Part shown: positions 16,038 through 35,532 of the stretch, in pieces
Layout: every line of letters starts with the position of its first letter
How positions within the stretch are numbered: the stretch's first letter is position 1
DNA from: a virus
Strand: one strand, 5' to 3'
IMG/VR virus record: IMGVR_UViG_3300040801_002731
Span: 70,972-106,503 of that record
Length of the DNA stretch: 35,532 nucleotides
Position numbers and translations under genes: made by a program
Notes under the pieces: generated by a model
What the model was told of the DNA's origin: nothing
Seen by the model: the letters and a program-made list of their open reading frames with translations, nothing else
Database searches by the model: none

Positions 16038-16038
16038 G

Positions 16039-17318: not shown

Positions 17319-17446
17319 GCGACGGTCCCCTCATTCTCGAAGACGATGCCGAGAGGGCCAAGCCAGAAGATGCGCTCGTCCGGCTCGTCGCTGGCCGTCC
17401 AGCCGATCGACCAGTGCGAGAGGCACCATGCAAATCCGATGATCAT
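17315..17446 (-). CDS. Small 43-aa hypothetical protein (not in ORF track)
   Basis: MIIGFAWCLSHWSIGWTASDEPDERIFWLGPLGIVFENEGTVA; ATGA overlap upstream and GTGA overlap with the ATPase start. Confidence 0.6.
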   Translation of the reverse strand: MIIGFAWCLSHWSIGWTASDEPDERIFWLGPLGIVFENEGTVA

Positions 17447-17730
17447 GTCGTCTCCACAACGTCATAGGTTTGGTAGAAAATCTCCGGCTTGCAGGGGTAG
17501 AACTCGCCAGCAATACCCTTGATCACGAAATCGCCCGGATCGACCCAATGCGCTCCTTCGAGCGTGGCGATGGAGAGCTGGCGCTTGCCATCAGCGTTGA
17601 TGTCCATGCTGGCCGGGGTCTTGCTGCCCTTCGTCCACTCGATGATCGCGCGGTTGGAATCGGCAAGGCCGGTCGCCTGCATCGCCTGGATGACGACGGG
17701 CTTCTTGCGGTAGCTCTTGGGCGCGCTCAT
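17443..17730 (-). CDS. RKKPVV/TLEG/GEFYPCKP family small phage protein (possible Acb4-like nucleotide sponge)
   Basis: MSAPKSYRKKPVVIQAMQ...IATLEGAHWVDPGDFVIKGIAGEFYPCKPEIFYQTY; start re-called to 17730. Confidence 0.7.
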   Translation of the reverse strand: MSAPKSYRKKPVVIQAMQATGLADSNRAIIEWTKGSKTPASMDINADGKRQLSIATLEGAHWVDPGDFVIKGIAGEFYPCKPEIFYQTYDVVETT

Positions 17731-18152
17731 TCGTCCATGTCCTCGTCGAGATACAGGCCCTCGGCGATCTGCTTGAGCATGTCTTCGAGGATCGGCAGGG
17801 TGCCGAGGTGCATCAGCGCCTGGGCCTGGTCGGGCGGCGCTGTTTCGTTGGCGTTCAGGCACACGCCGGCACACGGAGAGCCGACATTGGTCTGGTAGAC
17901 GATTGAGGCGCTGACGACATTGCCGGCCTCGGCCTGCGCCAGCAGTTCCCGGAACATCTGCACGGCGAACGGATTGACGTCCGCTGACGGCGCATCACCG
18001 CCCTCTTTGCCCTCGCCATCGTTTTCGATGGCGAGGGGTTCGCGGGTCGCGAAATGGATCACCTTGCGGTCGCGGGTATCTTCCTGAACACCGTCAATCC
18101 GGTTCCAGACAGCGCGCATCCGGGCGCGCAGCTCTTCCAGCTTGTCGCTCAT
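17727..18152 (-). CDS. Hypothetical protein
   Basis: 141 aa, ATGA-coupled on both sides. Confidence 0.7.
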   Translation of the reverse strand: MSDKLEELRARMRAVWNRIDGVQEDTRDRKVIHFATREPLAIENDGEGKEGGDAPSADVNPFAVQMFRELLAQAEAGNVVSASIVYQTNVGSPCAGVCLNANETAPPDQAQALMHLGTLPILEDMLKQIAEGLYLDEDMDE

Positions 18153-18814
18153 GCGATCCCCAGAGAGTCCAGGTGGGCCATAAGCGCCGCGGCGCCTTCC
18201 TTGCCGGTGCTGCTCTCGATCTGCGCCATGAACGCCTTGACGCGCCGGATCTCCTGCGCGCGCAGCTTCTTGAACCCGAAACCCTCGCCGATCGGCAGTT
18301 CGGTCTCGTCGACCTCGCGGATCTTGTCCTCGGTCTTCTCGCGCTGCTCCTCGACCGCCTCGCCGATGTCATCGACCAGAACGGCGTCGTCGATCATGGT
18401 CAGGTCCGCGAGCATGAACTCCAGCTCGTGCTCGTCGAAGCCGGTATCCGCCAGGTCAAAATCCAGGTTCTTCAGTTCCTGAAGGGCATCCTTCAGCAGC
18501 TCGGTGTCGTAGACCGTGGAGGCCGTGCGATTGTCGGCCAGACGCAACGCATCGGCCTCGGGCTTGGTCAGATCGGTGCGGCAGACCACCGGCACCTTGG
18601 TCATGCCCAGCTCCAGAGCGGCCAGTCGGCGGCCATGACCCGCGATGATCACGCCGTCTGCGTCGACCACGATGGGTTGGGTCCACCCGAACTTCTTGAT
18701 GGACCGAGCCAGTGCCGCGACCTGCTCGGGCGCATGAACCTTCGCGTTCTTCTCGTAAGGCTGGATCCGGCCAATGTCCCAGATTTCCACCGGGAGCTTC
18801 GCAATCTCACTCAT
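18149..18814 (-). CDS. ParB/Srx N-terminal domain protein
   Basis: PYEKNAKVH...SIKKFGWTQPIVVD...IIAGHGRRLAA...LRLADNR; start re-called to MSEIAK. Confidence 0.9.
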   Translation of the reverse strand: MSEIAKLPVEIWDIGRIQPYEKNAKVHAPEQVAALARSIKKFGWTQPIVVDADGVIIAGHGRRLAALELGMTKVPVVCRTDLTKPEADALRLADNRTASTVYDTELLKDALQELKNLDFDLADTGFDEHELEFMLADLTMIDDAVLVDDIGEAVEEQREKTEDKIREVDETELPIGEGFGFKKLRAQEIRRVKAFMAQIESSTGKEGAAALMAHLDSLGIA

Positions 18815-18995
18815 CGAAAGTCTCTCCGCGGAAGTTCTCTGTGATGAACCTGCACGCCTCGTTGAAATCGAGGGTTTCTCCGCGCGTCTCGAAGTTCTCG
18901 CCAACGGCGCAGGTCACACAGTGATAGGTGCCGATCAGTGCGCATTCGTTACAGTCATCGAACTTGCCACGGCGAAGCCGGCGAGGTTCAGTCAT
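18807..18995 (-). CDS. Small Cys-rich (Zn-binding-like) protein
   Basis: CNEC...CVTC, 62 aa, overlaps both ParB-like genes. Confidence 0.6.
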   Translation of the reverse strand: MTEPRRLRRGKFDDCNECALIGTYHCVTCAVGENFETRGETLDFNEACRFITENFRGETFDE

Positions 18996-19005
18996 TTTTG
19001 ATTGA
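18988..19005. promoter_or_regulatory. Operator copy inside a stop/start gene overlap
   Basis: TCAGTCATTTTTGATTGA. Confidence 0.7.
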
Positions 19006-19656
19006 TCCCATCAGAAGATAAACCAGAGCGTCGCCGGCATTTGTCAGCTCGTCCGCTTCGGTCAGTCCCTGCTCGGTCTGCGTCTTTTTGATCAGCGCCG
19101 ATACCCGCTCAGCGTCTCCCAACGAGACCTTAAAACGCATGATGGTATGCGTCTTCGGCGTCTTCTCGGGCTTTTCGTCCGGGAGATTGACGTCATCCGG
19201 TGTCGAATTTTCTTCGTAATCCAGCGCGTCAACGTCTATATCAACAGAAGCGAAAATCGCGTGCAGGTCTGTTTCGGTGAACGGCAAAAACGACGCCAGA
19301 TCGTGTTCTTCGGTGTTCAAACTTTCCAGAAGGCCAGCGAGGCCGACAACATCGTCTGTGCCATAACGCGCGTTGTCTGCCAGGCTGATTTCCTTGGCGC
19401 GGGCGTCGTCTATTTTGCCGACGCAAATGACCGGCACCGGATTGATGCCCAGTCGAACGGCGCTGTCACGACGATGCTCGCCGCCCAGGATCTCATAAGT
19501 GCCGTCATCGAGGCTTCGGACGACGATAGGCTTGAACATGCCCATGCGCCGGATCGCGGCGTCGAGCTTGACCTGGTTTTCCGGGCTGACGTGATTGGTG
19601 TTCCAAGGGTTCGGCTTCAGAGCCGAAGGGTCGATGGTGAACTGTGTTGGGGTCAT
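18988..19656 (-). CDS. Second ParB/Srx N-terminal domain protein
   Basis: LKPNPWNTN...GMFKPIVVR...YEILGGEHRR...LADNARYG; RHH-like C-terminal segment. Confidence 0.9.
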   Translation of the reverse strand: MTPTQFTIDPSALKPNPWNTNHVSPENQVKLDAAIRRMGMFKPIVVRSLDDGTYEILGGEHRRDSAVRLGINPVPVICVGKIDDARAKEISLADNARYGTDDVVGLAGLLESLNTEEHDLASFLPFTETDLHAIFASVDIDVDALDYEENSTPDDVNLPDEKPEKTPKTHTIMRFKVSLGDAERVSALIKKTQTEQGLTEADELTNAGDALVYLLMGSIKND

Positions 19657-23992: not shown

Positions 23993-24658
23993 ATGAACGC
24001 CATCATCCTTGCTGCCGTTTCGCAAAAGGGCGGTGTCGGCAAAAGCACCGTCGCCCGCCTTCTCTCCACCGTCTACGCCGGCGCCGGCTGGGATGTGAAA
24101 CTGGCCGATCTGAACCTCAAGCAGAAGACCGCCGTCAACTGGGTGGCGGATCGTCTGCACGAGGGTATCACGCCAGAGATCACGGCCGAGCCTTTCGGCA
24201 CCGTCAAAAAGGCCCTGCGTCTCGCTGCGCAGTATGACGCCATGATCTTCGACGGCGCCCCGGACTCCCACGCTACCACACTTGAGATCGCCAAGGCCGC
24301 GCACGCCGTCTTCATTCCCACAGGCGTCACCAAGGACGACCTGATGCCCCAGGTGCTGCTCGCGCACGAGCTGACTGGCGATCACGGCATCGCGGTCGAG
24401 CGCATTCTGTTCGTGCTGAACAAGACCCTGGACAGCCAGGTCTCGGTCGACGAGGCGCGCACCTACGTCGAGCGGGCGGGCTACGCCTGCTCCAGCAATC
24501 ACCTGAAGATGTCCACCGGCTATCAGCGCGCACAGAACATCGGCCGCTCGGTCGCCGAGACCGAATACCCCACGCTCAATCAGGCGGCCGACCGGCTCGC
24601 GCAAGAGATGGTCGACTTCATTGAGCTGCGCGTCGGACTGAAGAAGGAGACGGCGTGA
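23993..24658 (+). CDS. parA: ParA family partition ATPase (short type Ib)
   Basis: Deviant Walker A QKGGVGKST, LADL, IFDGAP; no N-terminal HTH. Confidence 0.93.
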   Translation: MNAIILAAVSQKGGVGKSTVARLLSTVYAGAGWDVKLADLNLKQKTAVNWVADRLHEGITPEITAEPFGTVKKALRLAAQYDAMIFDGAPDSHATTLEIAKAAHAVFIPTGVTKDDLMPQVLLAHELTGDHGIAVERILFVLNKTLDSQVSVDEARTYVERAGYACSSNHLKMSTGYQRAQNIGRSVAETEYPTLNQAADRLAQEMVDFIELRVGLKKETA

Positions 24659-25121: not shown

Positions 25122-25207
25122 TCCGGGTGGCGGGAGTCGAACCCGCACACTCTCTTTGAGCATCCGATTTTTAAGATCGGCGCGTCTACCAATTCCGCCA
25201 CACCCGG
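25122..25207 (-). tRNA. tRNA-Leu(UAA), no encoded CCA
   Basis: Acceptor stem CCGGGTG/CACCCGG plus discriminator A; D-arm GCG-GAATTGGTAGA-CGC; anticodon arm CCGAT-CTTAAAA-ATCGG; long variable arm; T-arm GCGGG-TTCGACT-CCCGC. Confidence 0.93.
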
Positions 25208-25367: not shown

Positions 25368-28300
25368 ATGCAGTTAGGCGAGATTTTAGAGAACTACCGC
25401 ACCGCCTCGACCAACGAGCGCGAGAAGGGTGAATATTTCGAGCGCTTGGTTCGCGTGTTCATCACCAATGATGACATCCAGAAGCAGTTCTACTCCGCCG
25501 TCGTCCCCTTCGCTGAATGGGCAAAGCAACAGGGCTGGAGCAATGCGGACACCGGGATCGACCTGGTGGCCACCCTTGCGGACGGGTCGGGGTATGCGGC
25601 CATCCAATGCAAGTTCTACGCCCCCAACCATGTGATCCAGAAGCCCGACATCGACAGCTTCATTTCTGCGGCCTCGAATGACCTCTTCACCCGCCTGATC
25701 ATCGCGGACACCACCCGGAAGGACTTCGGGCGCAACACCAAGGAAACCCTGGACAAGCTCTCGAAGGACTGGAACCGGATCGGTATCAATGAGCTTGAGG
25801 CCAGCCGGATCGACTGGTCGCAATTCATCCGCACCGGCAACGTCACCCTGGCCCCCAAGAAGCAGCTTCGGGATCACCAGCGGGATGCGCTGACAGCCGT
25901 CACGGAAGGTCTGGCTGAGGCAGATCGCGGCAAGCTCATCATGGCTTGCGGAACCGGCAAGACCTTCACCGCCCTGCGGGTCGCCGAGACCATAGCAGGC
26001 AAAGGCAAGCACGCGCTCTTCATGGTCCCGTCGCTGGCGCTGATGTCTCAGACCGTGCGCGAGTGGAAGAACGACTGTCAGGAAGAGTTCACGGCCTTCT
26101 CAGCCTGTTCGGACATCAAAGTCGGGCGCAACGCCGATGCCGATAGCCTTGATCTGAATGTCCATGACCTCGCCTTCCCGGCCACGACAGACCCGGAAAA
26201 ACTGGCCCGCCAGGTCAAGGATGCGCCTGCGGACAAGATGACAGTGGTCTTCTCGACCTATCATTCCATCGACGTTCTGACGCGCGCGCAAAAGAACCAC
26301 GGCCTGCCCGAGTTCGATCTGGTGATCTGCGACGAGGCGCACCGGACCACAGGCGTTACCCTGAAGGATGAGGATGACAGCAACTTCGTCCGCATCCACA
26401 ACAACGACTATGTGAAGGCTCGAAAGCGCCTCTACATGACGGCCACCCCCCGCATTTTTGGGGACGCTGCGCGCCGCAAGGCCGATGACCATGAGGCCGA
26501 GCTGGCCTCGATGGATGACGAGACCAAGTTTGGCAAAGACCTGTTCCACCGGGGATTTGGCTGGGCCGTCGAGAATGAACTGCTGACCGACTACAAGGTC
26601 GTGGTGCTCGCCGTGGATGAGGGGCTGATTTCCAGCACCATTCAGAGCCGCCTCAAGGAAGGCGCGGAACTGACCCTGGACGACGCCACCAAGATCATCG
26701 GATGTTACAAGGCCCTGACCAAGAGTGACCTCAAGGGCGATCTGACCTTCGATCCGCAGCCCATGAAGCGCGCGCTGGCCTTCTGCCATAGCATCAAGAA
26801 GTCTCTGGTGATCAAAGAGGAGTTTACCCGCGTTGTCGATGAATACACCGGCAACGACTTCTTCGGTGACGCGGCGCCTCTGCACACTGAGGTGCGCCAT
26901 ATTGACGGCAGCTTCAACTCCAGCGCCCGAGAAGAAATGCTGAACTGGCTCAAGGCCGATGCAGGCGATGATACCTGCCGCATCCTGACCAACGCCAAGG
27001 TATTGTCCGAGGGCGTGGACGTGCCGGCCCTCGACGCCATCATGTTCATGCACCCACGCAAGAGTCAGATCGACGTGGTGCAATCTGTGGGGCGCGTCAT
27101 GCGCCGTGCGGAAGGCAAGAAGCTCGGCTATGTGATCCTGCCAGTGGCTATCCCGCCCAACACAAAGCCCGAGGACGCCCTGAACGACAACGAGCGGTAT
27201 CAGGTTGTCTGGCAAATCCTGAACGCGCTCCGTGCCCATGACGAACGCCTCGACGCTCGCATCAACCAGGCCGAACTGGGCGAGGATATCAGCGACAAGA
27301 TCGAGCTGGTGCGCATCTCATCCAATACAGAGCTGAGAGAGCTGACCGCTGTGGTCGATGACTTCGCCACGAGCAAGACCAAGGCCGAGAAGACGGGCGC
27401 AGGCATTGGGCAGGAGAGCCGAGAGCGGCGGACCTATGGCGAGCCGGATGCTCAAGGGTCTTTCGTCTTCGACGAGTTCACCCGCGCCATCATGGCCAAG
27501 ATCGTCCAGAAGTGCGGAACCCGCGAATACTGGGATTCTTGGGCCAGAGACATCGCCAAGATTGCCCAGACACATATCACGCGCATCACCACCATCGTCG
27601 GCCAGCCGGGGGCTGAACGAGACGCCTTCCTCGCCTTCCTCGAAGAGCTACAGGACGACCTGAACCCCTCGATCACCGAGGCCGAGGCCATCGAGATGCT
27701 GGCGCAGCACCTCATCACGCGCCCGGTCTTTGACGCTCTGTTCAAGGGCAGCCAGTTCACCAGAGCGAACCCCGTCTCGTGTGCGATGGAGACGGTGCTT
27801 GGGCAACTCCACCAACACAATCTCGCCAAAGAGGCGGAGAGCCTCGCCAAGTTCTACGCCAGCGTCGAACGCCGCGCTGCCGATGTGGTGACAGCCCACG
27901 GGCGGCAGGAGCTGATCTACAAGCTCTATGACAGCTTCTTCAAAGGGGCCTTTCCGGTTCTGACGCAGCGGCTTGGCATCGTCTACACGCCGGTCGAGGT
28001 GGTGGATTTCATCATCCATTCGGTCAATGACGTGTTGAAGGCGCAGTTCGGCCAGACCCTCGGGGCCGAGGGTGTTCATATCCTCGACCCCTTCACCGGC
28101 ACCGGCACCTTCATCACCCGGCTACTGCAATCTGGTCTGATCGCGCGCGAAGAGCTGGCGCACAAATACCGGAAGGAAATCCACGCCAACGAGATCGTCC
28201 TGCTGGCCTATTACATCGCCGCCATCAACATCGAGACGGTCTATCACGAGCTGATGCAGGGCGCGCTGTCGGAGGACGCGCCCTATGAACCCTTCAAAGG

Positions 28301-30260
28301 CATCCTGCTGACCGACACCTTCCAGATGTATGAGCAGGAGCGCGACATGGTGGCGAACCTGCTGCCGGACAACTCCGAGCGCCGGACGCACCAGAAGGCA
28401 CTGGACATCCGCGTCATCATCGGCAACCCGCCCTATTCGGCGGGGCAGGGCAGCGCCAACGACAATGCTGCGAACCTTGCCTATCCACGACTAGATGCCG
28501 CCATCCGCGACAGCTACGTCGCGCACTCCACCGCCACTCTCAAGAATTCTCTCTATGACAGCTACATCCGGGCGATCCGATGGGCGTCGGACCGGATCGG
28601 TGATGCAGGTGTCATGGCCTATGTCACCAATGCAGGCTGGGTGGACGGTAACGCCACCGACGGCCTTCGTAAATGTCTGGCGGACGAGTTCAGCGACCTC
28701 TATGTGTTCCATCTTCGGGGCAACCAGCGCACTTCTGGCGAGTTGTCTCGCAAGGAAGGCGGCAAGATTTTTGGCTCTGGCAGCCGCGCGCCGATTGCGA
28801 TCTCTGTTTTCGTCAAGAATCCCGCGGCCACCGAGCATGGGCGCATCCATTTCCACGACATCGGCGATTATCTCGACCGGAAGCAAAAGCTGGCGATTGT
28901 GCGAGATTTCGCATCTATCGACGGCATCACCGCCGCCAAGGGTTGGCAGCGCATCGCCCCCGACGAGAACAACGACTGGCTGGACCAAGTGGATCGGAGT
29001 TTTGACAGCTTTATACCAATCGGGAACAAGTCAAATGGGGAAGAGAAATCTGTTTTCTATAATTACTACAATGGTATAAAGACGGGTCGGGACGTCTGGT
29101 GCTTCAATTCATCTGCAACCCGTGGTTTTGAAAACGCTTGTCGCATGATCGACGTCTACGAGCGTGAAAGGCAACGGTATGCCGAGAGTGATGGAAACCA
29201 AGACGTCGAAGACTTCGTTGACAGTGACCCGCGCCAAATAAGCTGGAACAGGATTGCCCGGCAGAAGCTTGCGCGTAATATCTCCCTGCGCCACCAAGAC
29301 GTGCGGGCTTTTCAAAACATATATCGGCCATTCTCGCCACAGCAAGCAAACCTGCTTCTTGAGATCAGCGATCTCGTAACACTGTTCAGGCGGGCTTTCC
29401 CGACGGGTGGTCAAGACAACCTTGTGATTGATGTGTCGGGCGTTGGTTCAAAGTCTTTCACATCGCTGATGTTCAGTCGCCCGCCAAGCTTCGATGCGGT
29501 GGAAAAAGGCCAATGCTTTCCCCTCTACCTCTACGAAGAAACCCAACCCGATGAGGGCCTCTTCGCCACAGGTGGAGATCAGGCAAGCGGCCTGACCCGA
29601 CGCGACGCCATCACCGATGCAGGTCTCGCCCATTTCCAAGCCTCCTATCCGGGGCAGGAGATCACCAAGGAAGACCTGTTCTATTACATCTACGGTCTGC
29701 TCCACTCCCCCGAATACCGCGACCGCTATGCCAACAACCTCGCCAAAGCCCTGCCACGCATCCCGGCAGTCCGCACCTATCATGACTTCGCCGCCTTCCG
29801 TGACGCAGGCCGCGCCCTGGGCGATCTGCATGTGAACTTTGAGTCCGTCGCGCCCTACATGGTGACCTTCAAGGAAGGCGATCACGCCCTCATCAACGAG
29901 GCGCAGGATGACCCCGTGAAGTTCTACCGCGTCACCAAGATGAAGTTCGGCGGCAAGGGCAAGGGGAAGGACAAGACCACCGTCATCTACAACGGCAACA
30001 TCACCATGCAGAACATTCCGCTGGAAGCCTATGACTATGTAGTCAACGGCAAACCTGCGCTGGAATGGGTGATGGAACGGCAGGTGGTGAAGCAGGACAA
30101 GGACAGCGGCATTGTGAACGACGCGAACGATTACGCCAACGAGACGGTGGGCGATCCGCGCTATCCGCTCGATCTATTCCGCCGCGTGATCACCGTGAGC
30201 CTGGAGACCATGCGGATCGTGAACAGCCTCCCAGCACTCGACATTGAAGACCCAAAGTGA
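25368..30260 (+). CDS. Type ISP restriction-modification enzyme (LlaGI/LlaBIII-like)
   Basis: Mrr-like nuclease (GIDLVA...AIQCKFY), SF2 helicase (MACGTGKT, DEAH, MTATP, QSVGRVMR), N6-adenine MTase (LDPFTGTGTF, GNPPY) and a C-terminal TRD. Confidence 0.95.
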   Translation: MQLGEILENYRTASTNEREKGEYFERLVRVFITNDDIQKQFYSAVVPFAEWAKQQGWSNADTGIDLVATLADGSGYAAIQCKFYAPNHVIQKPDIDSFISAASNDLFTRLIIADTTRKDFGRNTKETLDKLSKDWNRIGINELEASRIDWSQFIRTGNVTLAPKKQLRDHQRDALTAVTEGLAEADRGKLIMACGTGKTFTALRVAETIAGKGKHALFMVPSLALMSQTVREWKNDCQEEFTAFSACSDIKVGRNADADSLDLNVHDLAFPATTDPEKLARQVKDAPADKMTVVFSTYHSIDVLTRAQKNHGLPEFDLVICDEAHRTTGVTLKDEDDSNFVRIHNNDYVKARKRLYMTATPRIFGDAARRKADDHEAELASMDDETKFGKDLFHRGFGWAVENELLTDYKVVVLAVDEGLISSTIQSRLKEGAELTLDDATKIIGCYKALTKSDLKGDLTFDPQPMKRALAFCHSIKKSLVIKEEFTRVVDEYTGNDFFGDAAPLHTEVRHIDGSFNSSAREEMLNWLKADAGDDTCRILTNAKVLSEGVDVPALDAIMFMHPRKSQIDVVQSVGRVMRRAEGKKLGYVILPVAIPPNTKPEDALNDNERYQVVWQILNALRAHDERLDARINQAELGEDISDKIELVRISSNTELRELTAVVDDFATSKTKAEKTGAGIGQESRERRTYGEPDAQGSFVFDEFTRAIMAKIVQKCGTREYWDSWARDIAKIAQTHITRITTIVGQPGAERDAFLAFLEELQDDLNPSITEAEAIEMLAQHLITRPVFDALFKGSQFTRANPVSCAMETVLGQLHQHNLAKEAESLAKFYASVERRAADVVTAHGRQELIYKLYDSFFKGAFPVLTQRLGIVYTPVEVVDFIIHSVNDVLKAQFGQTLGAEGVHILDPFTGTGTFITRLLQSGLIAREELAHKYRKEIHANEIVLLAYYIAAINIETVYHELMQGALSEDAPYEPFKGILLTDTFQMYEQERDMVANLLPDNSERRTHQKALDIRVIIGNPPYSAGQGSANDNAANLAYPRLDAAIRDSYVAHSTATLKNSLYDSYIRAIRWASDRIGDAGVMAYVTNAGWVDGNATDGLRKCLADEFSDLYVFHLRGNQRTSGELSRKEGGKIFGSGSRAPIAISVFVKNPAATEHGRIHFHDIGDYLDRKQKLAIVRDFASIDGITAAKGWQRIAPDENNDWLDQVDRSFDSFIPIGNKSNGEEKSVFYNYYNGIKTGRDVWCFNSSATRGFENACRMIDVYERERQRYAESDGNQDVEDFVDSDPRQISWNRIARQKLARNISLRHQDVRAFQNIYRPFSPQQANLLLEISDLVTLFRRAFPTGGQDNLVIDVSGVGSKSFTSLMFSRPPSFDAVEKGQCFPLYLYEETQPDEGLFATGGDQASGLTRRDAITDAGLAHFQASYPGQEITKEDLFYYIYGLLHSPEYRDRYANNLAKALPRIPAVRTYHDFAAFRDAGRALGDLHVNFESVAPYMVTFKEGDHALINEAQDDPVKFYRVTKMKFGGKGKGKDKTTVIYNGNITMQNIPLEAYDYVVNGKPALEWVMERQVVKQDKDSGIVNDANDYANETVGDPRYPLDLFRRVITVSLETMRIVNSLPALDIEDPK

Positions 30261-30352
30261 CCAGCACCGTAGCGGGCCGGTTTGGGTCACCGTGAACGAC
30301 TGAGCCCGTGGTGCAAAACAATCGCCCACGAGGAACTACGTCTGCGGCCCTC

Positions 30353-30440
30353 GGCCCTCCAAGGATGGACCGGGGGCAGCGCGTGGCTCTCCAAGGATGG
30401 ATTGGGTGCGACGCCCGGCTCTCCAAGGACGAATTGGGGG
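30353..30440. repeat. Three direct repeats with an exact 32-bp period and CCAAGG core
   Basis: GGCYCTCCAAGGAYGRAYYGGG at 30353, 30385 and 30417. Confidence 0.85.
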
Positions 30441-30819
30441 TGTGGTGAGCGATGGCGGCATCCGGGTCGTCAAGACGCATTTTCGCTAGGACATCGTATC
30501 GTTTCGCGTTCGCACTATCGCATGACGCGCACGCTATCGCGAAGCGCGAGCGTTTCACTTGCGAGACGTGTTGTTGCGAATGCGTTTCGTCTTGCTCGTG
30601 CGCGCGTCTTGTTCGCTTTCGTAACATTGCGACCGCGACATATTCAGCGTTCGCAACAATGCGACATTGATGCAACAGCATGTGTTGCATAAACGACATA
30701 GCGTTTAAACGCTCACAGAAGCGCGCACAAGCGCGAGTCTGTTTTGCGGTATCTGGTGCCCTATCAGATTCGCTTGCGCGTCTGTGACGCGCTATAGCGT
30801 GATTTGTGGACTATCTGAC

Positions 30820-30856
30820 AAAAGGGAAAAGGCCGGACCATTGCGGCCCGGCCTTT
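30820..30856 (-). terminator. Intrinsic terminator
   Basis: AAAGGCCGGGCC-GCAAT-GGTCCGGCCTTT followed by TCCCTTTT. Confidence 0.8.
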
Positions 30857-30863
30857 GTTGCGT

Positions 30864-31514
30864 TTACACTGCGAAACGATTCGCCAGATATTCGGCGAAG
30901 TCGTTTTCATTTATAGTGTAGTATTCACGATTCATGTCGTCTTTGGCTTTTGTCCAGAAGCCAAAAGTAACCAAAGCCGACATTGCGGGGCTTCCCTGTC
31001 CGTTTGCCGTTCCCTGACTTGCGTTATTTCGCTTAAACAAGCGACACAACTTTGCATCAAGTGTCAACTTGTCAGAAACGCTTGCAAGCCCATAGTGATG
31101 ATAAAACGTGATCCCCTCTTTCTTTGCCACAAGCGCATTGTGGATAATTGCGCTTGCATGTTTGTTGATTGCGCTAACACTATCGAAAGCGCAAGCCACG
31201 CCAATATTTGCGCAATATTTCATTGCGTAAACATTATATCGCGTGCCGGCCTTGACTTGACGGTTCACAAAGTCGGCCGGAATGTTTGCAGCGATGCAAG
31301 CGCGTGCAAACGAGACTTTCGACATTTGCGCCAGATTCGCTTTCAAAGTATCCTGAATGTTTGCGTTTCCAGGATCCTTTGTCGTTTCATACTCTTTGCG
31401 CGCTTCCATTTGCTGGACAAGCGCGCTTGTCCACTCTTTCGCTTGTTCGTCAGTGATAGACTGGACGGAAGCGATGAAAGAGGGAATGTTTGCGTTGGTG
31501 GTCTTGCGTGCCAT
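30864..31514 (-). CDS. Hypothetical protein, 216 aa (cassette 1), lower GC
   Basis: AAGGA RBS, own leader and terminator; basic protein, possibly DNA-binding. Confidence 0.85.
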   Translation of the reverse strand: MARKTTNANIPSFIASVQSITDEQAKEWTSALVQQMEARKEYETTKDPGNANIQDTLKANLAQMSKVSFARACIAANIPADFVNRQVKAGTRYNVYAMKYCANIGVACAFDSVSAINKHASAIIHNALVAKKEGITFYHHYGLASVSDKLTLDAKLCRLFKRNNASQGTANGQGSPAMSALVTFGFWTKAKDDMNREYYTINENDFAEYLANRFAV

Positions 31515-31599
31515 TGTCTTGTTTCCTTGTTTGTGTGTTTGCGTTGTTTTTCCAAACGCAACAGCTTTTTCATTCTGTGCGCGTTCGGTTTTTTCACAA

Positions 31600-31641
31600 T
31601 GTCAAAGAGCGTATCGCGTTGTTTGTTTTGTCGTTCGCGAT
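31600..31641 (-). promoter_or_regulatory. boxB-like stem plus boxA-like antitermination sequence
   Basis: ATCGCG-N17-CGCGAT followed by CGCTCTTTGACA (rrn boxA consensus is TGCTCTTTAACA). Confidence 0.55.
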
Positions 31642-31669
31642 GACTCTTTTTTACTGGATTTCCCAAAAG

Positions 31670-31687
31670 TCAGTCAATCCTGATTTA
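31670..31687. promoter_or_regulatory. Operator copy overlapping a minus-strand TTGACT -35
   Basis: TCAGTCAATCCTGATTTA. Confidence 0.75.
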
Positions 31688-31893
31688 TCAAAAAAATTTT
31701 TTGCTGAAAAAACAGCATGTTAGAAAGCGCGAAAGCGCGATATCGCGCTTTCTCGAAAGAGCGAAAGAGCGAAAGCGCGACGACTCGAATCGTCGATTCG
31801 CGCACATTAGAATGATTGAATATGCAGACTCTGATTTGAGTCGTTTCGCATTGCGAACGGCTTTGACGCAAGCGCGTATAGTTAAGAATCGTT

Positions 31894-31989
31894 CTTATAT
31901 GTGTTTTTGCTTATATGCACAGTCTCTTATATGCACAGTCTCTTATATGCAGAGTTTCTTATATACGACGTTTCTTATATACGACGTTT
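31894..31989. repeat. Six tandem 16-bp repeats with CTTATAT core
   Basis: CTTATATGTGTTTTTG, CTTATATGCACAGTCT x2, CTTATATGCAGAGTTT, CTTATATACGACGTTT x2. Confidence 0.92.
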
Positions 31990-32031
31990 CTAAATTAGAT
32001 CCGTCTAATATGCGCCCGCTGCCCCACAACC

Positions 32032-32224
32032 CCATGGGATTCCGCCCATGGCCGTTCCCATGGCCGTTCCCATAGGCGCGTGCCCCTAGCCTTTCCCCTT
32101 GGAAACTGCCACGGAGCCTCACCCACGCGCAACCCCTGAGCCGTTCCCTATGGGTGTGCCGGCGCCGCTCCCATGCGCACGACCGAGGACGACGCCGAGG
32201 CGCTCCCCTTGGCACACACCAAGC
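32032..32224. repeat. Phased CCNNGG-type array
   Basis: CC at nine consecutive 12-bp steps from 32123 to 32219; CCATGG at 32032, 32046 and 32058. Confidence 0.85.
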
Positions 32225-32228
32225 GCAT

Positions 32229-32259
32229 GAGAAAGGGGAGCGCCCTCGACGCTCCCCTT
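32229..32259 (-). terminator. Terminator-like hairpin
   Basis: AAGGGGAGCG-N7-CGCTCCCCTT followed by TCTC. Confidence 0.65.
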
Positions 32260-32295
32260 CCCCGCTCTCGATCTACGTCCCGGAGCAGCGTGCGA

Positions 32296-32616
32296 TCACA
32301 GCTTGCCCGAAGCGAGCGCTTTGCGGAGCGCTTCAGCTTCCCGACGCTCCTCACGTCTGATCTGTGCGAGACGCTTCCGTTCGTGCGCCCGTTCGCGCTT
32401 CAGCTCATGGGCGCTTCGCATCATGTCGGCGGGCGCGTGATCGTAACCCAGCTTCTTCAAAGCGGGCTGGACGCGCTTCTCCGCGAAAAATTCAAGATGA
32501 GCGAAAGCGCGTTCGCGAAGGGAAGCGTCTTTCGCGTCACACGCCGCGAGCGCAAGCTCGGTCATGTCGGTGAGAAGGGAAACAGCGCGATCATAGCTCG
32601 GAGTGTTGGCAGACAT
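32296..32616 (-). CDS. Hypothetical helical protein, 106 aa (cassette 2)
   Basis: AAGGGAG RBS; start re-called to MSANTP. Confidence 0.75.
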   Translation of the reverse strand: MSANTPSYDRAVSLLTDMTELALAACDAKDASLRERAFAHLEFFAEKRVQPALKKLGYDHAPADMMRSAHELKRERAHERKRLAQIRREERREAEALRKALASGKL

Positions 32617-32699
32617 TTTGTTCTCCCTTGTCTGCGTTGCTGACAAGTAGAGTGTCGCGCTTTGCTGTTGGGTCTGCTTCCGGGAGATGAGCGGCAACT

Positions 32700-32890
32700 G
32701 AGCCGGGCGTGTCCACGGCGGATCTGTATGGAACAGCCCGGCCGAGAAGCCATGGACGGCCGGGAATGGCCTGACCCCTATGGACCGGCCTCGGCCTGAT
32801 GGACGTGGACCTGGCTATGGCGGCCTGGGATCGGAGAACCCCTTGGCCTGGCCTACATGGACCGGACCACGGGCTTGTCCTTGGGCGTTC
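32700..32890. repeat. CCNNGG/GGCC-dense spacer (looser phasing)
   Basis: CCNNGG at 32713, 32750, 32789, 32824, 32841, 32867 and 32879. Confidence 0.65.
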
Positions 32891-32898
32891 TCATGCGC

Positions 32899-32925
32899 GA
32901 GAGAGCGCGTCCGAAGACGCGCCCT
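32899..32925 (-). terminator. UUCG hairpin, terminator-like
   Basis: GCGCGTC-TTCG-GACGCGC followed by TCTCTC, just after the stop codon. Confidence 0.65.
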
Positions 32926-32931
32926 AAGCTC

Positions 32932-33300
32932 CTAGCTGAACACCTCTGCAAGCTCTCCACTCAGCTCCACTAGATACTGATACGCTTCTTGCGAAAAGCC
33001 GATGAGCGCTCCGTTCTCTCTGTCAATGCGTGTCGCTTCGAGTGCGAAATCATAGAGCGCAAAAAAACTATATCGTTTGTCAGCGAAACGACATCTCACC
33101 ATATCTGTTGAAACTCCTCTAATGATTCCTTCTTTAACGATTTTCGTTTTCACTTTGCGCGCTATATCAACTTCCAAGACAGTTTCCTCTTGCTTGTTCA
33201 TAACAAGCACAGAAAAAGTCGTTATGGACGTAGCATCGTCAATGAGCGTGCTCTCGGACTCGACGACTTGCGCGAAGAAAGCGATATCGCTGATTTTCAT
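32932..33300 (-). CDS. Hypothetical protein, 122 aa (cassette 3)
   Basis: GGAG RBS; start re-called to MKISD; contains no Pro or Trp. Confidence 0.78.
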   Translation of the reverse strand: MKISDIAFFAQVVESESTLIDDATSITTFSVLVMNKQEETVLEVDIARKVKTKIVKEGIIRGVSTDMVRCRFADKRYSFFALYDFALEATRIDRENGALIGFSQEAYQYLVELSGELAEVFS

Positions 33301-33390
33301 TGTTCGCTCCATTGCTTGTCTGTTCGCTTCATCGCGAACAAGTAAACAGTAGAGCGTTGTTTGTGGACTTCAGGTAGGAAGAAGCATGGA

Positions 33391-33520
33391 CCGAGGTGGG
33401 AAGATTTGCGGGTTTTCTCTTGGAGATTTCCTCGGTCGACGCGCCGGCGTTTTCCCTTGGCCGGCACCTTGGGCGTTCTCAGCGCAAGAAGAAAAGGCGT
33501 GCCCTTGAGCACGCCCTTGA
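33391..33520. repeat. Phased CCNNGG-type array
   Basis: TCTTGG 33418, CCTCGG 33430, CGCCGG 33442, CCTTGG 33455 and 33467, CCTTGA 33503 and 33515. Confidence 0.7.
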
Positions 33521-33616
33521 GTGTTCAAGCGGCGAAGAGGATGAAGTAGATCCCCAGAACCCCGAACATCATCAGCAGGCCGAGGAACTCTCCGGCCCAT
33601 CGGGCAATTTCTCGGA

Positions 33617-33817
33617 TCATGACAGGCACTCCCCGCGGCAGGCGTTGAGGTCTCGGTCGAGGTCTCGGAGCAGGACGCTGCGGGGATCGTCTCGGCCGAT
33701 CTGCGGGAACGTCTCGACGCCCGAGGCGTCGATCACGGAGTAGACGAGACGGGTGAGGTGCCGGGAGAGGCGATAGATGCGGCCCGATGGGGAGAAGTAT
33801 TCTCGCACGACAGTCAT
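33617..33817 (-). CDS. Hypothetical protein, 66 aa (cassette 4)
   Basis: Leader TGTCAGCAACG...AAAGGGAAC is shared with cassette 2; start re-called to MTVVREY. Confidence 0.6.
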   Translation of the reverse strand: MTVVREYFSPSGRIYRLSRHLTRLVYSVIDASGVETFPQIGRDDPRSVLLRDLDRDLNACRGECLS

Positions 33818-33901
33818 GAGCGTGTTCCCTTTGCTCGTTGCTGACATGCTCATGCTCGCGTTTTCAGATTGGGGTCTCGGCTGGGTTGTTCTGCGGTTGT
33901 T

Positions 33902-34003
33902 GGTCGGCCGGTGCCTTGGGGCGCTCTATGGGCCGGGCCAGGGAAGTCTTCTCGGCCGGCACTCTGGGCATATCCTCGGACAGCCCCTTGGGGCATGTCA
34001 TGC
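33902..34003. repeat. Phased CCNNGG-type array
   Basis: Eight consecutive 12-bp registers (33902-33986) have GG at hexamer positions 5-6; four are full CCNNGG. Confidence 0.8.
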
Positions 34004-34005
34004 GT

Positions 34006-34032
34006 GAGAGTGCAGCGGGCTGCTGCACTCTC
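34006..34032 (-). terminator. Hairpin after the cassette 5 stop
   Basis: Perfect 11-bp stem GAGAGTGCAGC-N5-GCTGCACTCTC; no clear U tract. Confidence 0.5.
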
Positions 34033-34039
34033 TGCGGGG

Positions 34040-34291
34040 TTACGCTGCTTCGTCGTCAAGCGGGTCGTCGAGCAACGCGACGATCTCGTCGTTGGCGCGC
34101 TGCATCAGAACGAACAGCTCGTTGGGCGTCAGCGTCTCGTCGTGACGTTCGATGCTGTAGATTAGACGCTCGGCGTTCGTCATTTTGACAACAGCGGCGA
34201 TCTTGTCGCTGTCTTTCTTGTAAATCTTGACTTCGGCTTCGTCGTTGGTCATGTCGTAGTCAACAGCGAAAGTGTAATTTGTCTGGTTCAT
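34040..34291 (-). CDS. Small acidic hypothetical protein, 83 aa (cassette 5)
   Basis: Start re-called to MNQTNY; Asp/Glu-rich, with no Gly or Trp. Confidence 0.78.
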   Translation of the reverse strand: MNQTNYTFAVDYDMTNDEAEVKIYKKDSDKIAAVVKMTNAERLIYSIERHDETLTPNELFVLMQRANDEIVALLDDPLDDEAA

Positions 34292-34452
34292 GGCTCTCTC
34301 GTTTGTTTGGTTGTTTGTTCGCTTCGCTGCGAACAAGTAGACTTTACGCGCGCAACTTCGGGGAACAGACTGGCATATTTATGCGATCTGCGGCGGGGCT
34401 GCGCGCGGGCGTGGGCTTGTCGGTGATATAGCGGGCATGGGCCTGGGGTTGC

Positions 34453-34720
34453 CCTTGGCATTGTCCATGGAATTTCCCATGCGAACCGCCAACACGCCGG
34501 CCATGGGAGTTCCCAGAGCAGAGCCCACGGACCTGCCCATGCGAGAGACCGAGGAGGGCGCCAACACGCCGGCCATGGGAGTTCCCTCGGCGATGCCCTT
34601 GGATGACACCGTGGGCCGGGCCGCGGCACGGCGCGTAGGCAAGGCCATGGCCGTTCCCAGAGGTCACCCCTGAGCCGTTCCCTATGGGATACCTGCCTGC
34701 CCGTGGCCTTTCCCTATGGG
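34453..34720. repeat. Longest phased CCNNGG-type array (12-bp period)
   Basis: 19 of 20 consecutive 12-bp registers from 34453 to 34681 begin with CC, and 11 are full CCNNGG. Confidence 0.92.
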
Positions 34721-34788
34721 CGCGCCAAAAAGATGCCCGACTGGACGAACCAGCCGGGCGAGTTCATGGCATCGCAAATCGAAAAGGG

Positions 34789-35079
34789 TCAGGCGAGGCT
34801 CTTCCAGGAGAACTGGAAGCCATTGCCGAAGATCGTGAGGCGCGCCGGGAGGCTCCTGCCGTCGGGCATGGTCAGCGCCGGAGTTATGCTTGTCTTGATC
34901 TCCCGGTGTCCGATGCCGTGCTGGGCGAGGAGCGCGCGGACCATGTTGATCGCGTGCTGGGGGTCGGCGGCGCTTTGGCTGGGGATGAGCCGCGGGAGGT
35001 CGTGCTTGACCGTCTCCAGGATGTCGTAGCCGCTCGGGCCGTAGAAGAAACAGGCCCCGTCGAGCTTGAAGTAGGACAT
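34789..35079 (-). CDS. Hypothetical protein, 96 aa (cassette 6)
   Basis: Start re-called to MSYFKL; leader TAACAGACTCATCG resembles that of cassette 1. Confidence 0.68.
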   Translation of the reverse strand: MSYFKLDGACFFYGPSGYDILETVKHDLPRLIPSQSAADPQHAINMVRALLAQHGIGHREIKTSITPALTMPDGRSLPARLTIFGNGFQFSWKSLA

Positions 35080-35186
35080 GACGCTCTCGCCTCGTGTCGT
35101 TGTCGATGAGTCTGTTATCGCGCACCAGGTTTGGGGACGCGGCTGGGAACGCAGAGGATTGAGCAGCGCTGTCGGGGCACGAAAGC

Positions 35187-35258
35187 GCGTCACAGAGCGC
35201 GACCGGGGCGTTCTGCTGTCGAGCTACGCTGCGCGTGACGGATCGCGCTCTGTGACGC
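35187..35258. repeat. 16-bp perfect inverted repeat (long hairpin)
   Basis: GCGTCACAGAGCGCGA-N40-TCGCGCTCTGTGACGC. Confidence 0.8.
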
Positions 35259-35532
35259 TCTAAGAGCGATTCAGCGACAGCCAAATCACGCGAGAAAGCG
35301 ATAGCGCGAGTGCGCGTGTTCGCGCTTGGGCGAAGGCCAGAGGCCAGCGGACCAGAGACCTCGGCCTGGAGGCCGTGGACGGCCGGACCCTCATGGACCG
35401 GCCTTCAGGCCATGAACCGGAGGACCTATCATTCCGAGTGGGTTTTGGCGGTTCGAGGGCCGAGGGCTTTTCCTCGCCCTGGAGCGAAATCATGAAAATT
35501 GGGGATCTGGAATTGTAAGGCGCCCCTTGGCA

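Follow-up and report, generated by a model that had tools for sequence, protein, structure and literature searches.

The window, which is the whole stretch of 35,532 nt that we have analyzed, belongs to a 106.5-kb replicon with 61% GC. It contains a regulator island at 30.45–32.0 kb, followed by small cassettes, in which tracts nearly devoid of the dinucleotides CC and GG (deserts) lie next to arrays dense in them. Promoters, transcript ends and terminators are predictions, made by eye or with consensus scans. The features are:

30345–30429, CC/GG-dense repeat array at the left border, 32-bp period, about 2.4 copies (Tandem Repeats Finder and 100-bp profile)
30490–30747, desert 1, non-coding, rich in CG/GC, without GG and with one CC (counts, gaps, shuffles)
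30828–30856, minus strand, terminator-like hairpin after the wHTH gene, 13 pairs and a T-rich tail, CC/GG present
30864–31514, minus strand, wHTH gene P0001, 216 aa, C-terminal winged helix, short paralogue of a phage-plasmid family
31670–31687, 18-bp palindromic operator TCAATCAA-NN-TTGATTGA, one of 12 copies in the window
31680–32000, desert 2, non-coding, no CC and one GG (counts, gaps, shuffles)
32001–32290, CC/GG-dense motif array adjoining desert 2, units of the GTTCCC..WWGG type, 12-bp period at 32045–32097
32885–33312, minus strand, cassette gene (32932–33312), 126 aa, 45% GC; plus strand free of GG over 32885–33225
33987–34441, minus strand, strand-specific zone, sense strand without GG (gaps, counts, codon-based expectation)
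34442–34720, motif array dense in CC/GG, at the edge of the strand-specific zone (100-bp profile)

P0001 has 47% GC and is depleted in CC/GG, not free of them: 47 are observed and 72 expected, with 18 CC and 29 GG on the sense strand. The protein holds 15 Gly, Pro or Trp residues. Desert 1 is found past the terminator of this gene. It contains no credible ORF and no Rfam family, and a copy of the AGCGCGTCACAGA motif is found at 30792, about 45 bp to its right. Upstream of the gene, a TTGACT resembling a -35 box overlaps the operator (promoter read by eye). Desert 2 includes GAAAGCGC repeats (31723–31789), six GANTC sites and five 16-bp iterons (31910–31991). These two both-strand deserts are non-coding and lie outside the likely transcript, one past the terminator and the other upstream of the operator.

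Depth and placement of the deserts

Direct counts reproduce the deserts described in the first-pass annotation. The 30491–30747 tract (257 bp, 52.5% GC) has one CC, no GG, 38 CG and 34 GC; 31681–32000 (320 bp, 39% GC) has one GG and no CC; and the plus strand of 33988–34441 (454 bp) has 37 GG and no CC. Expectations were obtained from mononucleotide shuffles (n = 50,000). The mean CC+GG is 35.0 for the first tract and 24.1 for the second, against one observed in each; the mean CC is 25.0 for the third, against none, and the mean GG for 32885–33225 is 11.8, also against none. In each case, 0 of 50,000 shuffles were as low. The abrupt switch to CC/GG-rich DNA, previously placed at about 32015, is seen at about 32000: 31900–32000 has neither CC nor GG, while 32000–32100 has 25 CC and 5 GG.

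The whole replicon was scanned in 250-bp windows for the share of CC+GG among dinucleotides formed by G and C. The median is 0.41 and the first percentile 0.22; only 30455–30829 and 31530–32004 (window coordinates) fall below 0.15. Over the replicon, the longest gaps without CC, without GG or without either are all within 30.4–34.4 kb, and no other dinucleotide pair has comparable gaps. The deserts are non-random in placement and persist after correction for local composition, the two points on which the annotation had made its claim depend: They are far below expectation and are not scattered over the replicon. The genes of the window also have less CC/GG than predicted from protein sequence and replicon codon usage.

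Strand-specific cassettes

The 33987–34441 zone includes a minus-strand gene (34040–34291/34336) and reaches beyond it, by about 150 nt upstream of the start codon and by 53 nt past the stop codon. As had been noticed, this gene codes for neither Gly nor Trp; its leader is rich in CA, its ribosome site is GAGAG, and there is a hairpin on its 3' side. There are no GG in 34040–34291, against 7.7 expected from the protein sequence (P = 0.0007). GG-poor sense strands, with CC less depleted, are found in eight cassettes from seven elements (GG/CC counts of 0/10, 2/23, 6/30, 11/24, 0/26, 4/19, 0/24 and 5/19), and the clearest GG-free zones run from 113–152 nt before the start codon to 33–76 nt past the stop. 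Ribosome-binding sites without GG, such as GAGAG or AAGAAAGAG, are found in units under the ban. The tracts cover flanks and leaders of the small-gene region, where the annotation had located them. The 32932–33312 gene has two plus-strand GG, the number already reported. Its sense strand has 2 CC and 11 GG, while 21.5 CC and 23.6 GG are expected given the protein. Both this cassette and P0001 have fewer CC than GG in sense, a polarity opposite to that of the GG-free cassettes.

The main rival of the explanation we prefer acts on RNA: A ribonuclease or RNA-modifying toxin, from the host or the element, would hit GG in single-stranded RNA. Transcripts of the module would be GG-free in order to survive, with both-strand deserts where both strands are transcribed. 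Transcripts free of toxin sites are known for MqsR (GCU) and MazF (ACA), and the GG-free zones are likewise strand-specific, roughly transcript-long and of the same polarity in the eight cassettes; the GG-less ribosome-binding sites also agree. Nevertheless, we consider this rival rather unlikely. GG-free zones begin far ahead of the sites where transcription probably starts, and predicted transcripts include neither the both-strand deserts of the window nor the last 200 bp of the one in pLM21S1. The sense strand of the absolute deserts described below lacks CC as well, which is only explained if antisense transcripts matter, and no antisense promoter was found for an absolute desert. The likeness to the GCU-free mqsRA and ACA-free genes is clear in 33987–34441 and its counterparts in relatives, but the main deserts differ: They affect both strands and reach apparently untranscribed DNA.

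Related phage-plasmids and the avoided word

P0001 and the desert gene of pLM21S1 are remotely homologous, and P0001 falls in one clade (support 99) with all the members which lack Gly, Pro and Trp. The relatives are pLM21S1, pRlX6, the Rhizobium phages B1VFA, V1VFA-S and RHph_X66, and metagenome contigs. In these relatives the matching gene sits in an absolute CC/GG-free tract of 0.85–1.7 kb, for example:

pLM21S1, absolute desert of 1333 bp
V1VFA-S, absolute desert of 1278 bp
B1VFA, absolute desert of 850 bp
L007, absolute desert of 1033 bp
L010, absolute desert of 1.67 kb

The ban is absolute on both strands from promoter to terminator, ribosome site and coding sequence included, which leaves the proteins without Gly, Pro and Trp. 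Among the 50%-identity cluster representatives listed, 8 of 150 have none of the three. In pLM21S1 and B1VFA, both scanned whole, each genome has a single desert, all other CC/GG-free gaps being 72–73 bp long at most. Borders are sharp within a few bp and reach promoter and post-terminator DNA; the pLM21S1 desert runs about 200 bp beyond the last terminator-like hairpin. The terminal repeats of B1VFA are 3.6 kb long (PMC12509600).

The ban has been kept through considerable divergence. The alignment of pLM21S1 with pRlX6 shows 237 differences over 840 sites (28%), and 26–27% of random substitutions would give CC or GG: About 60 are expected and one is present. This result and the codon-based deficit bear out the selection that the annotation had claimed, as opposed to chance, but not the sites of 4–6 bp that it had proposed as targets. 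The avoided word is exactly the dinucleotide GG/CC, since CC and GG are the only words missing from 5.9 kb of pooled deserts of relatives. Among tri- and tetranucleotides, nothing else is avoided strongly there; GTAC is avoided only mildly, and GCGC, CGCG and TCGA are abundant. GGCC, CCGG and CCNNGG are not supported as the avoided sites. A modification target, which was also proposed, may underlie the avoidance, but TGT/DpdA genes are absent from the replicon of the window and from five relatives.

The third proposal, CC/NGG PAMs, matches the word but leaves one cleared 1-kb unit per 110-kb genome unexplained. Avoidance of a CC (type I-F) or NGG (Cas9) PAM, or of restriction sites containing CC/GG, is in our opinion very improbable, even if the word coincides with known two-letter PAMs and local motif-free DNA that enters first is known in T5 and T7-like phages. 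Clearing 1 kb of 110 kb gives no protection against CRISPR or restriction directed to DNA, sites without CC/GG (GCGC, CGCG, TCGA) are plentiful in the deserts, and the use of PAMs in DNA targeting gives no reason for a strand-specific ban. The strongest cases have Rhizobium hosts, which rarely carry CRISPR. Motif avoidance in phages, by restriction sites or PAM depletion, resembles our case in that selection on a mobile element makes a short word rare. However, known cases are genome-wide and partial, while here a dinucleotide step is avoided locally, in one unit per 106–122-kb genome, and the ban in relatives is absolute and removes three amino acids and the canonical ribosome-binding site. 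The T5 first-step-transfer region and the T7-like leading region are also local regions of small early-type genes without sites found elsewhere; they concern 4–6-bp sites, whereas the module described here concerns a dinucleotide.

A mutational origin appears quite improbable. A transcription-coupled, CC-specific cytosine deaminase with an APOBEC3G-like context would erode CC on both strands, and the desert would be the mutational equilibrium of a heavily transcribed unit, not an adaptation. The GC content of the deserts is 10–13 points below that of their flanks. The density of CG+GC is unchanged (about 21.8 per 100 bp in deserts, 21.7 on average in the replicon of the window), which is what results when CC/GG are simply lost. 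In place of Gly there is mostly Asp, Asn or Glu, and Ser often stands for Pro, changes reachable by G>A or C>T. On the other hand, Ala is the commonest replacement of Pro, and Gly is also replaced by Gln, Val, Thr or His, which requires transversions; TC, CT, GA and AG do not exceed the genome level, and the sharp borders extend into promoter and post-terminator DNA. GG-free cassettes lack CC on the template strand, while known deaminases favour the exposed non-template strand. We know of no bacterial deaminase of this kind.

The window and its relatives share a neighbourhood with ParA, a long paralogue of normal composition and GTTCCC-type arrays; a related array motif, GTTCCCCTA, is common to the window, L002, L004 and L010. 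A DNA-binding protein of the element (the long or the short paralogue) might recognise array units of the GTTCCC..WWGG type, the regulator unit being cleared of site-like sequence and so escaping binding or silencing. Arrays abut deserts in the window and in relatives, distant elements share the unit, the desert gene codes for a winged-helix protein with a normal-composition paralogue in the same replicon, and both paralogues share the recognition-helix motif TASTQASS. We still regard such self-avoidance as improbable: Evading a 9–12-bp site does not require the loss of every CC/GG or of Gly, Pro and Trp, and the strand-specific cassettes are left unexplained.

A relaxed module and its possible reader

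RHEph10/SSU5-like phage-plasmids of alphaproteobacteria have a conserved module, and the deserts of the window are the form it takes in this replicon. In the module, purifying selection keeps GG:CC out of the unit transcribed for the short winged-helix regulator and out of part of a small neighbouring cassette. The annotation had not noted the partial depletion of P0001, the restriction of one tract to a single strand or the match of the locus with an absolute desert in relatives. In the lineage of the window the ban is relaxed: It is lifted from the regulator coding sequence and persists in the flanks (30490–30747 and 31680–32000) and, on one strand, over the cassette transcript (33987–34441). 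Absolute, leaky, flanks-only and absent bans are all found among lineages. The ban is evolutionarily labile, and therefore dispensable in some settings.

Such grades are also expected if the ban is a fossil, no longer enforced in this lineage, the deserts being ancestral leftovers plus motifs which happen to lack CC/GG. P0001 has regained its CC/GG and its Gly, Pro and Trp and its GC content is still low, the downstream desert has been lost in L011, the closest relative, and desert 2 is full of CC/GG-less repeats. We give this alternative a small chance, similar to that of the RNA reader. The upstream flanks of L011 and the window are only 47% identical overall, yet desert 2 and a 253-bp stretch of the L011 flank are both nearly free of CC/GG. 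In a replicon so rich in GC, non-coding DNA should regain them at least at the coding rate, but it is the cleanest part, and the deficit of GG in 34040–34291 also argues against a fossil.

A relaxed copy of the conserved GG:CC-free regulator module, plus an activity that reads CC, is our best overall explanation, in which we have about as much confidence as doubt. The avoidance of the GG/CC step by the regulator and its neighbours implies that something reads it. We tentatively suggest an activity acting strand by strand on cytosine in the CC context of DNA. It might come from the host or the element; a frequently cutting nickase would fit, as would an enzyme that deaminates or modifies cytosine. 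A template strand without CC, which gives RNA without GG, would leave the gene correctly transcribable, and regulatory DNA without CC on both strands would remain intact and readable by proteins. The position of the both-strand deserts, outside predicted transcripts, hints at DNA, as do the stretch of the pLM21S1 desert past the last hairpin and the near absence of CC/GG from parts of the divergent upstream flanks of the window and L011. Nevertheless, the polarity of P0001 and 32932–33312 counts against this mechanism, as do the absence of TGT/DpdA genes from this replicon and five relatives and the conserved ParB-ParB-ABC operon, which is found both in elements with the full ban and in relaxed ones. 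Nor would a reader of CC in DNA alone account for the clearing of a single unit per genome when thousands of CC are tolerated elsewhere.

We have found no paper describing such a CC/GG-free phage-plasmid module. pLM21S1 is reported to carry no methyltransferase gene (PMC5537653), a further point against the mechanism. Enzymes which read two or three DNA letters demonstrate that this kind of specificity occurs, and offer possible analogies: the Nt.CviPII (CCD) nickase of chlorella viruses, which would be alike in specificity only, and DpdA, which carries out context-specific base modification at GA (PMC10484667), although no TGT/DpdA homologue is found in the replicon of the window or in five relatives. 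The full-ban relatives have the same gene family, neighbourhood and dinucleotide as the window, but the regulator of the window has CC/GG and Gly, Pro and Trp, and its ban is limited to the non-coding flanks and one cassette strand.

CC and GG deserts in the window and in related elements

Two non-coding tracts of the window, desert 1 (30490–30747) and desert 2 (31680–32000), are nearly free of CC and GG on both strands. One CC and no GG are found in 30491–30747, together with 38 CG and 34 GC, and one GG and no CC in 31681–32000. A third tract, 33988–34441, has 37 GG and no CC. Composition-keeping shuffles give means of 35.0 and 24.1 CC+GG for the two deserts and 25.0 CC for the third tract, and 0 of 50,000 shuffles came down to the observed value in each of the three. 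In 250-bp windows over the whole replicon, the median share of CC+GG among dinucleotides made of G and C is 0.41 and the 1st percentile is 0.22; values under 0.15 are only found at 30455–30829 and 31530–32004. The longest gaps of the replicon free of CC, of GG or of either all lie within 30.4–34.4 kb, and no other dinucleotide pair has comparable gaps anywhere in the replicon. The deserts which the first-pass annotation described at 30491–34441 are thus borne out by counts, shuffles and replicon-wide windows, their extremes being unique in the replicon. The abrupt switch to CC/GG-rich DNA, placed by that annotation near 32015, is seen at about 32000, where desert 2 gives way to CC/GG-dense repeat arrays. 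It is quite unlikely that the deserts simply avoid the element's own array-binding protein.

The window is the final third of a 106.5-kb single-contig virus record (G000). The replicon has portal, capsid, terminase, ParA and ParB-type genes, and its TerL shares 65% identity with the TerL of Rhizobium phage RHEph10. On these grounds it is an RHEph10/SSU5-like phage-plasmid of an alphaproteobacterium. A blastn search with the 5.3-kb region gives no plasmid or phage match. The main features near the deserts are:

23993–24658: ParA gene, part of the module neighbourhood
25122–25207 (−): tRNA-Leu (anticodon TAA), flanked by the ParA region and the Type ISP gene
25368–30260 (+): complete Type ISP restriction-modification gene, 1630 aa, ending ~230 bp left of desert 1
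30864–31514 (−): gene for P0001, 216 aa, followed by a strong hairpin (30828–30856)

A tblastn search with P0001 leads to non-mobilizable plasmids of ~117 kb, found in Sinorhizobium, Rhizobium and Methylobacterium among others. The first-pass finding extends to related phage-plasmids: the same locus is a CC/GG-free tract in pLM21S1, V1VFA-S, B1VFA and others.

Table. Tracts with few or no CC and GG in relatives. Metagenome contigs were found via the protein family.
pLM21S1: 1333 bp, zero CC, zero GG, GC 45%
pRlX6: 857 bp, one GG
V1VFA-S (Rhizobium phage): 1278 bp, CC/GG-free
B1VFA (Rhizobium phage): 850 bp, CC/GG-free
RHph_X66 (Rhizobium phage): 767 bp, one exception
L007 (metagenome contig): 1033 bp, CC/GG-free
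L009 (metagenome contig): all 1013 bp of the contig, CC/GG-free
L010 (metagenome contig): 1.67 kb, one interruption

In the relatives, the tract holds a gene of ~200 aa, at times accompanied by another small gene, together with a predicted promoter-like element, a ribosome site without GG and predicted terminator-like hairpins; it covers a further ~200 bp as well. Whole-record scans of pLM21S1 and B1VFA detect one such tract each, the next-longest gap being 72–73 bp. Of 840 aligned positions in the deserts of pLM21S1 and pRlX6, 237 are not identical. As 26–27% of random substitutions create CC or GG, some 60 of these dinucleotides would be expected between them, and 1 is present. A mutational origin of the deserts is very doubtful. 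In 5.9 kb of pooled deserts, CC and GG are the only absent words. The other dinucleotides are near expectation, except CG and GC (1.8) and TA (0.6), and no further tri- or tetranucleotide is strongly avoided. The ban on the GG:CC step is therefore local and maintained by selection, absolute in the relatives and relaxed in the window.

The sites GGCC, CCGG and CCNNGG, proposed in the first-pass annotation as the avoided words, are too long: the avoided unit is the GG:CC step itself, and all CC and GG are gone. Avoidance of restriction sites would tolerate other CC/GG contexts outside a 4–6-bp site, whereas none is tolerated in the pooled deserts. The CRISPR PAMs which it also suggested fare no better. 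A PAM depletion which protects the element would be replicon-wide or cover the targeted DNA, while here there is one 0.85–1.3-kb tract per 117–122-kb genome in the two relatives scanned whole, and the observed/expected ratio of CC and GG is about 0.8 in G000 outside its tracts. PAM or restriction avoidance is highly improbable.

The winged-helix regulator and its relaxed module

No Pfam or PHROGs match is found for the regulator P0001 or for the cassettes (small neighbouring genes), a word-index protein search returns only the query itself, a PDB sequence search gives only a marginal ArsR match, Foldseek against the PDB has no match below E 0.1, and a protein atlas has only "hypothetical protein" clusters. 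An exhaustive phmmer search finds 202 clusters of the family. The AlphaFold (AF2) model, with 45 relatives as input, has a pLDDT of 95.6; its N-terminal half is predicted to be helical, and a winged helix is predicted at the C-terminus. Residues ~105–216 align to the winged helices of AF1382, RosR, MarR and WRN-RQC, with Z scores in the moderate range (8.0–9.1) and rmsd of 2.4–3.1 over 81–98 residues. By predicted fold, then, the C-terminal domain is a winged helix, a description of fold which implies no function.

The family has long members (270–400 aa, ordinary composition) and short members (~190–250 aa), and G000 carries one of each. The long paralogue, of normal composition, is interrupted by the contig start (bases 1–470, − strand) and has no in-frame continuation at the contig end (window position 35532), so G000 is not a closed circle and at least ~450 bp are missing. 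P0001 is a short paralogue of this winged-helix family (motifs N..IQ, RYNVYA, TASTQASS). In the family tree it is grouped, with a clade support of 99, with all members which lack Gly, Pro and Trp, and these are short paralogues; P0001 and P0002, the relative closest to it, are at the base of this clade. Such a complete lack is found in 8 of 150 among the cluster representatives listed. P0027 and P0006 have a normal composition, yet they are nested among the Gly/Pro/Trp-free members; the ban has therefore been lost repeatedly. P0001 and the pLM21S1 desert gene are remote homologues (BLASTP E 3e-4 over 158 aa). Another family member, P0061 (946 aa), has eight separate stretches which match P0001 residues 48–89, and judging from its sequence it consists of repeats of the N-terminal helical motif.

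In the window the module is only partly cleared. P0001 has 9 Gly, 4 Pro and 2 Trp, and its gene contains 47 CC/GG, as opposed to 72 expected from composition. Given the protein and the codon usage of the replicon, there are 18 CC vs. 51 expected and 29 GG vs. 39 expected, an expectation which is inflated by the low GC of the gene (47%). Only the flanks, 30490–30747 and 31680–32000, are CC/GG-free. The neighbourhood is that of the module: ParA, a long paralogue of normal composition, CC/GG-rich arrays and a cassette, 34040–34291, with a GG-free sense strand. The gene belongs to the short paralogues, yet neither the protein nor the unit as a whole has the defining composition, so the window is best described as a relaxed variant of the GG/CC-free regulator module of RHEph10/SSU5-like phage-plasmids, an unpublished family. 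It shows that the ban may be lifted from coding sequence while regulatory DNA keeps it, and that a cleared gene has a normally composed paralogue in the same element.

Different grades are found among contigs: leaky (L030, L028), flanks-only (L029, L011 and the window) and none (L026). A desert in the downstream flank is found in the window only. The ban might be a fossil in the window's lineage, which we consider rather unlikely. When aligned, the upstream flank of the window and that of contig L011 are just 47% identical overall, and nevertheless desert 2 and a 253-bp stretch of the L011 flank are both nearly CC/GG-free. This argues that the ban is still enforced in the flanks, instead of being inherited with a conserved sequence.

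The cassettes present a second form of the ban. In 33987–34441, CC is missing from the plus strand only. The cassette gene 34040–34291 (−) has no GG in its sense strand, where 7.7 would be expected given the protein (P = 0.0007), and its CC are mildly low (10). A small cassette of the same polarity is found near the desert in every element examined; the other cassettes have sense GG/CC counts of 2/23, 6/30, 11/24, 0/26, 4/19, 0/24 and 5/19. The clearest GG-free zones start 113–152 nt 5' of the start codon and end 33–76 nt after the stop, within or just beyond a hairpin, so that a zone covers about one transcript, as judged from predicted ends. In other words, cassettes avoid GG in RNA, which is CC in the template DNA strand. 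The polarity is reversed (sense CC lower than GG) in the regulator gene of the window and in cassette 32932–33312.

Possible causes of the ban

Motif avoidance in phages, motif-free first-entering DNA and transcripts free of toxin sites are known. The confinement of avoidance to the sense strand in 33987–34441 and its 7 counterparts, with transcript ends as predicted, is what would be expected of a toxin-resistant transcript; the both-strand deserts are not confined in this way. The strand-specific cassettes point to a cause confined to the template strand or to RNA. A reader of GG at the RNA level is the main rival explanation, with a low probability. The both-strand deserts cover predicted promoters and DNA beyond predicted terminators, and in the window solely non-coding DNA, which points to a cause at the DNA level.

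When both forms are considered together, an activity which acts on the cytosine in CC, one strand at a time, is favoured; it might be a deaminase or modifier of cytosine, or else a frequent nickase. CC-free template strands could still be transcribed, and regulatory DNA without CC on either strand would remain intact. We propose only tentatively that such a strand-by-strand activity explains the ban. More broadly, it is conceivable, if still doubtful, that alphaproteobacteria or these phage-plasmids harbour an undescribed activity on the GG:CC step, be it a strand-acting enzyme on DNA (nickase, deaminase or modifier) or one which targets RNA, and that these elements keep a substrate-free "stealth" winged-helix regulator with a few small genes. 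Several facts weigh against all models with a reader of this step: the searches turned up no reader, none of the models accounts for the protection of a single unit in each genome, and the regulator gene of the window and cassette 32932–33312 have the opposite polarity.

The modification target suggested in the first-pass annotation finds no support from DpdA/TGT: neither G000 nor any of five relatives (W01–W05) matches PF01702, while 14 of 14 control genomes do, which speaks against a 7-deazaguanine modification by a DpdA encoded in the element. pLM21S1 is reported to lack a recognised methyltransferase (PMC5537653). More than 150 ORFs are common to pLM21S1 and B1VFA and absent from G000, which is too diverged to single out a reader among them.

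Other candidates have been rejected. Z-DNA or purine-pyrimidine alternation does not agree with the normal frequency of AA, AG and GA steps. Guanine oxidation hot spots with neighbouring GG "sinks" would involve too weak a selection per site and leave the strand-specific ban unexplained. A cause at the tRNA level (no Gly, Pro or Trp codons) does not account for the clearing of codon junctions and non-coding DNA.

In the searchable literature we have found no description of a local, absolute dinucleotide ban which recodes proteins, nor of CC/GG-free phage genes; the genome announcement of B1VFA and V1VFA-S speaks only of "CpG islands". A selection which clears a conserved gene unit of every CC/GG, together with glycine, proline, tryptophan and the canonical ribosome-binding site, implies a potent dinucleotide-specific factor, hitherto undescribed, which could be a tool of defence, counter-defence or host takeover. 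The strand-specific form seen in the window, a GG-free RNA with a CC-free template strand, narrows the possible chemistry. If the undescribed activity exists, the series from absolute to leaky, flanks-only (the window) and none would be a natural titration, through which phylogenetic profiling could identify the reader. The question is directly testable, as phages B1VFA, V1VFA-S and RHph_X66 have been isolated and plasmid pLM21S1 is in culture.

Other features around the deserts

No credible ORF is found in desert 1, and no Rfam family in 30200–35532, which includes both deserts. The Type ISP gene has Mrr_cat_2, ResIII/helicase, ISP coupler, methylase and C-terminal specificity domains. Neither pLM21S1 nor B1VFA has a counterpart, so this gene is cargo of the window's lineage, inserted beside the module. 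In the relatives, tRNA-Met, tRNA-Asn and a Trp-like tRNA adjoin the deserts.

Besides GAAAGCGC repeats, desert 2 contains five 16-bp direct repeats at its far end (31910–31991), which are found in two variants, CTTATATGCACAGTCT and TCTTATATACGACGTT, and look like iterons. Its six GANTC (CcrM-type) sites in the 320 bp of 31681–32000 compare with about 1 expected (P = 0.002) and with a replicon average of 1.5/kb. We have rejected this enrichment as a general feature of deserts, as it is true only of desert 2 and not of the deserts of the relatives.

A conserved operon adjoins the terminase genes. It codes for a permease-less ABC ATPase, two proteins with a ParB_N domain and one of 309 aa which has no Pfam match, with 47–72% identity across three elements:

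Window, 14839–19656
pLM21S1, 72.3–77.8 kb
B1VFA, 48.5–54.0 kb

Its presence does not track the ban, as it is found in all three, whether the ban is absolute or relaxed.

A candidate 18-bp palindromic operator, TCAATCAA-NN-TTGATTGA, is itself free of CC and GG and has 12 copies in the window, positioned at gene boundaries (4430, 5361, 8744, 9784, 12488, 14432, 14554, 18988, 19669, 21481, 22611 and 31670). The 31670 copy, between desert 2 and the P0001 gene, overlaps a -35-like TTGACT of the predicted promoter upstream of this gene, which apparently belongs to a replicon-wide regulon.

Cassette leaders are CA-rich, with predicted GAGAG-type ribosome sites. Short inverted repeats, TTGTTCGC-N6-GCGAACAA or CTTGTC-N8-GACAAG, are found just 5' of these GG-poor sites in several leaders (window 34292–34345, 33313–33350 and 32617–32660; L030 5385–5450 and 5760–5823), a pattern which suggests a common operator and a Shine-Dalgarno-poor translation. 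Another motif, AGCGCGTCACAGA, is found at 30792 (−), just right of desert 1, and at 35185 (+), at the CC/GG-poor tract 35180–35310. In the pLM21S1 record it forms an inverted pair, 66602 (+)/66677 (−), within the distal, non-coding stretch of the desert. The motif is a candidate operator common to distant elements.
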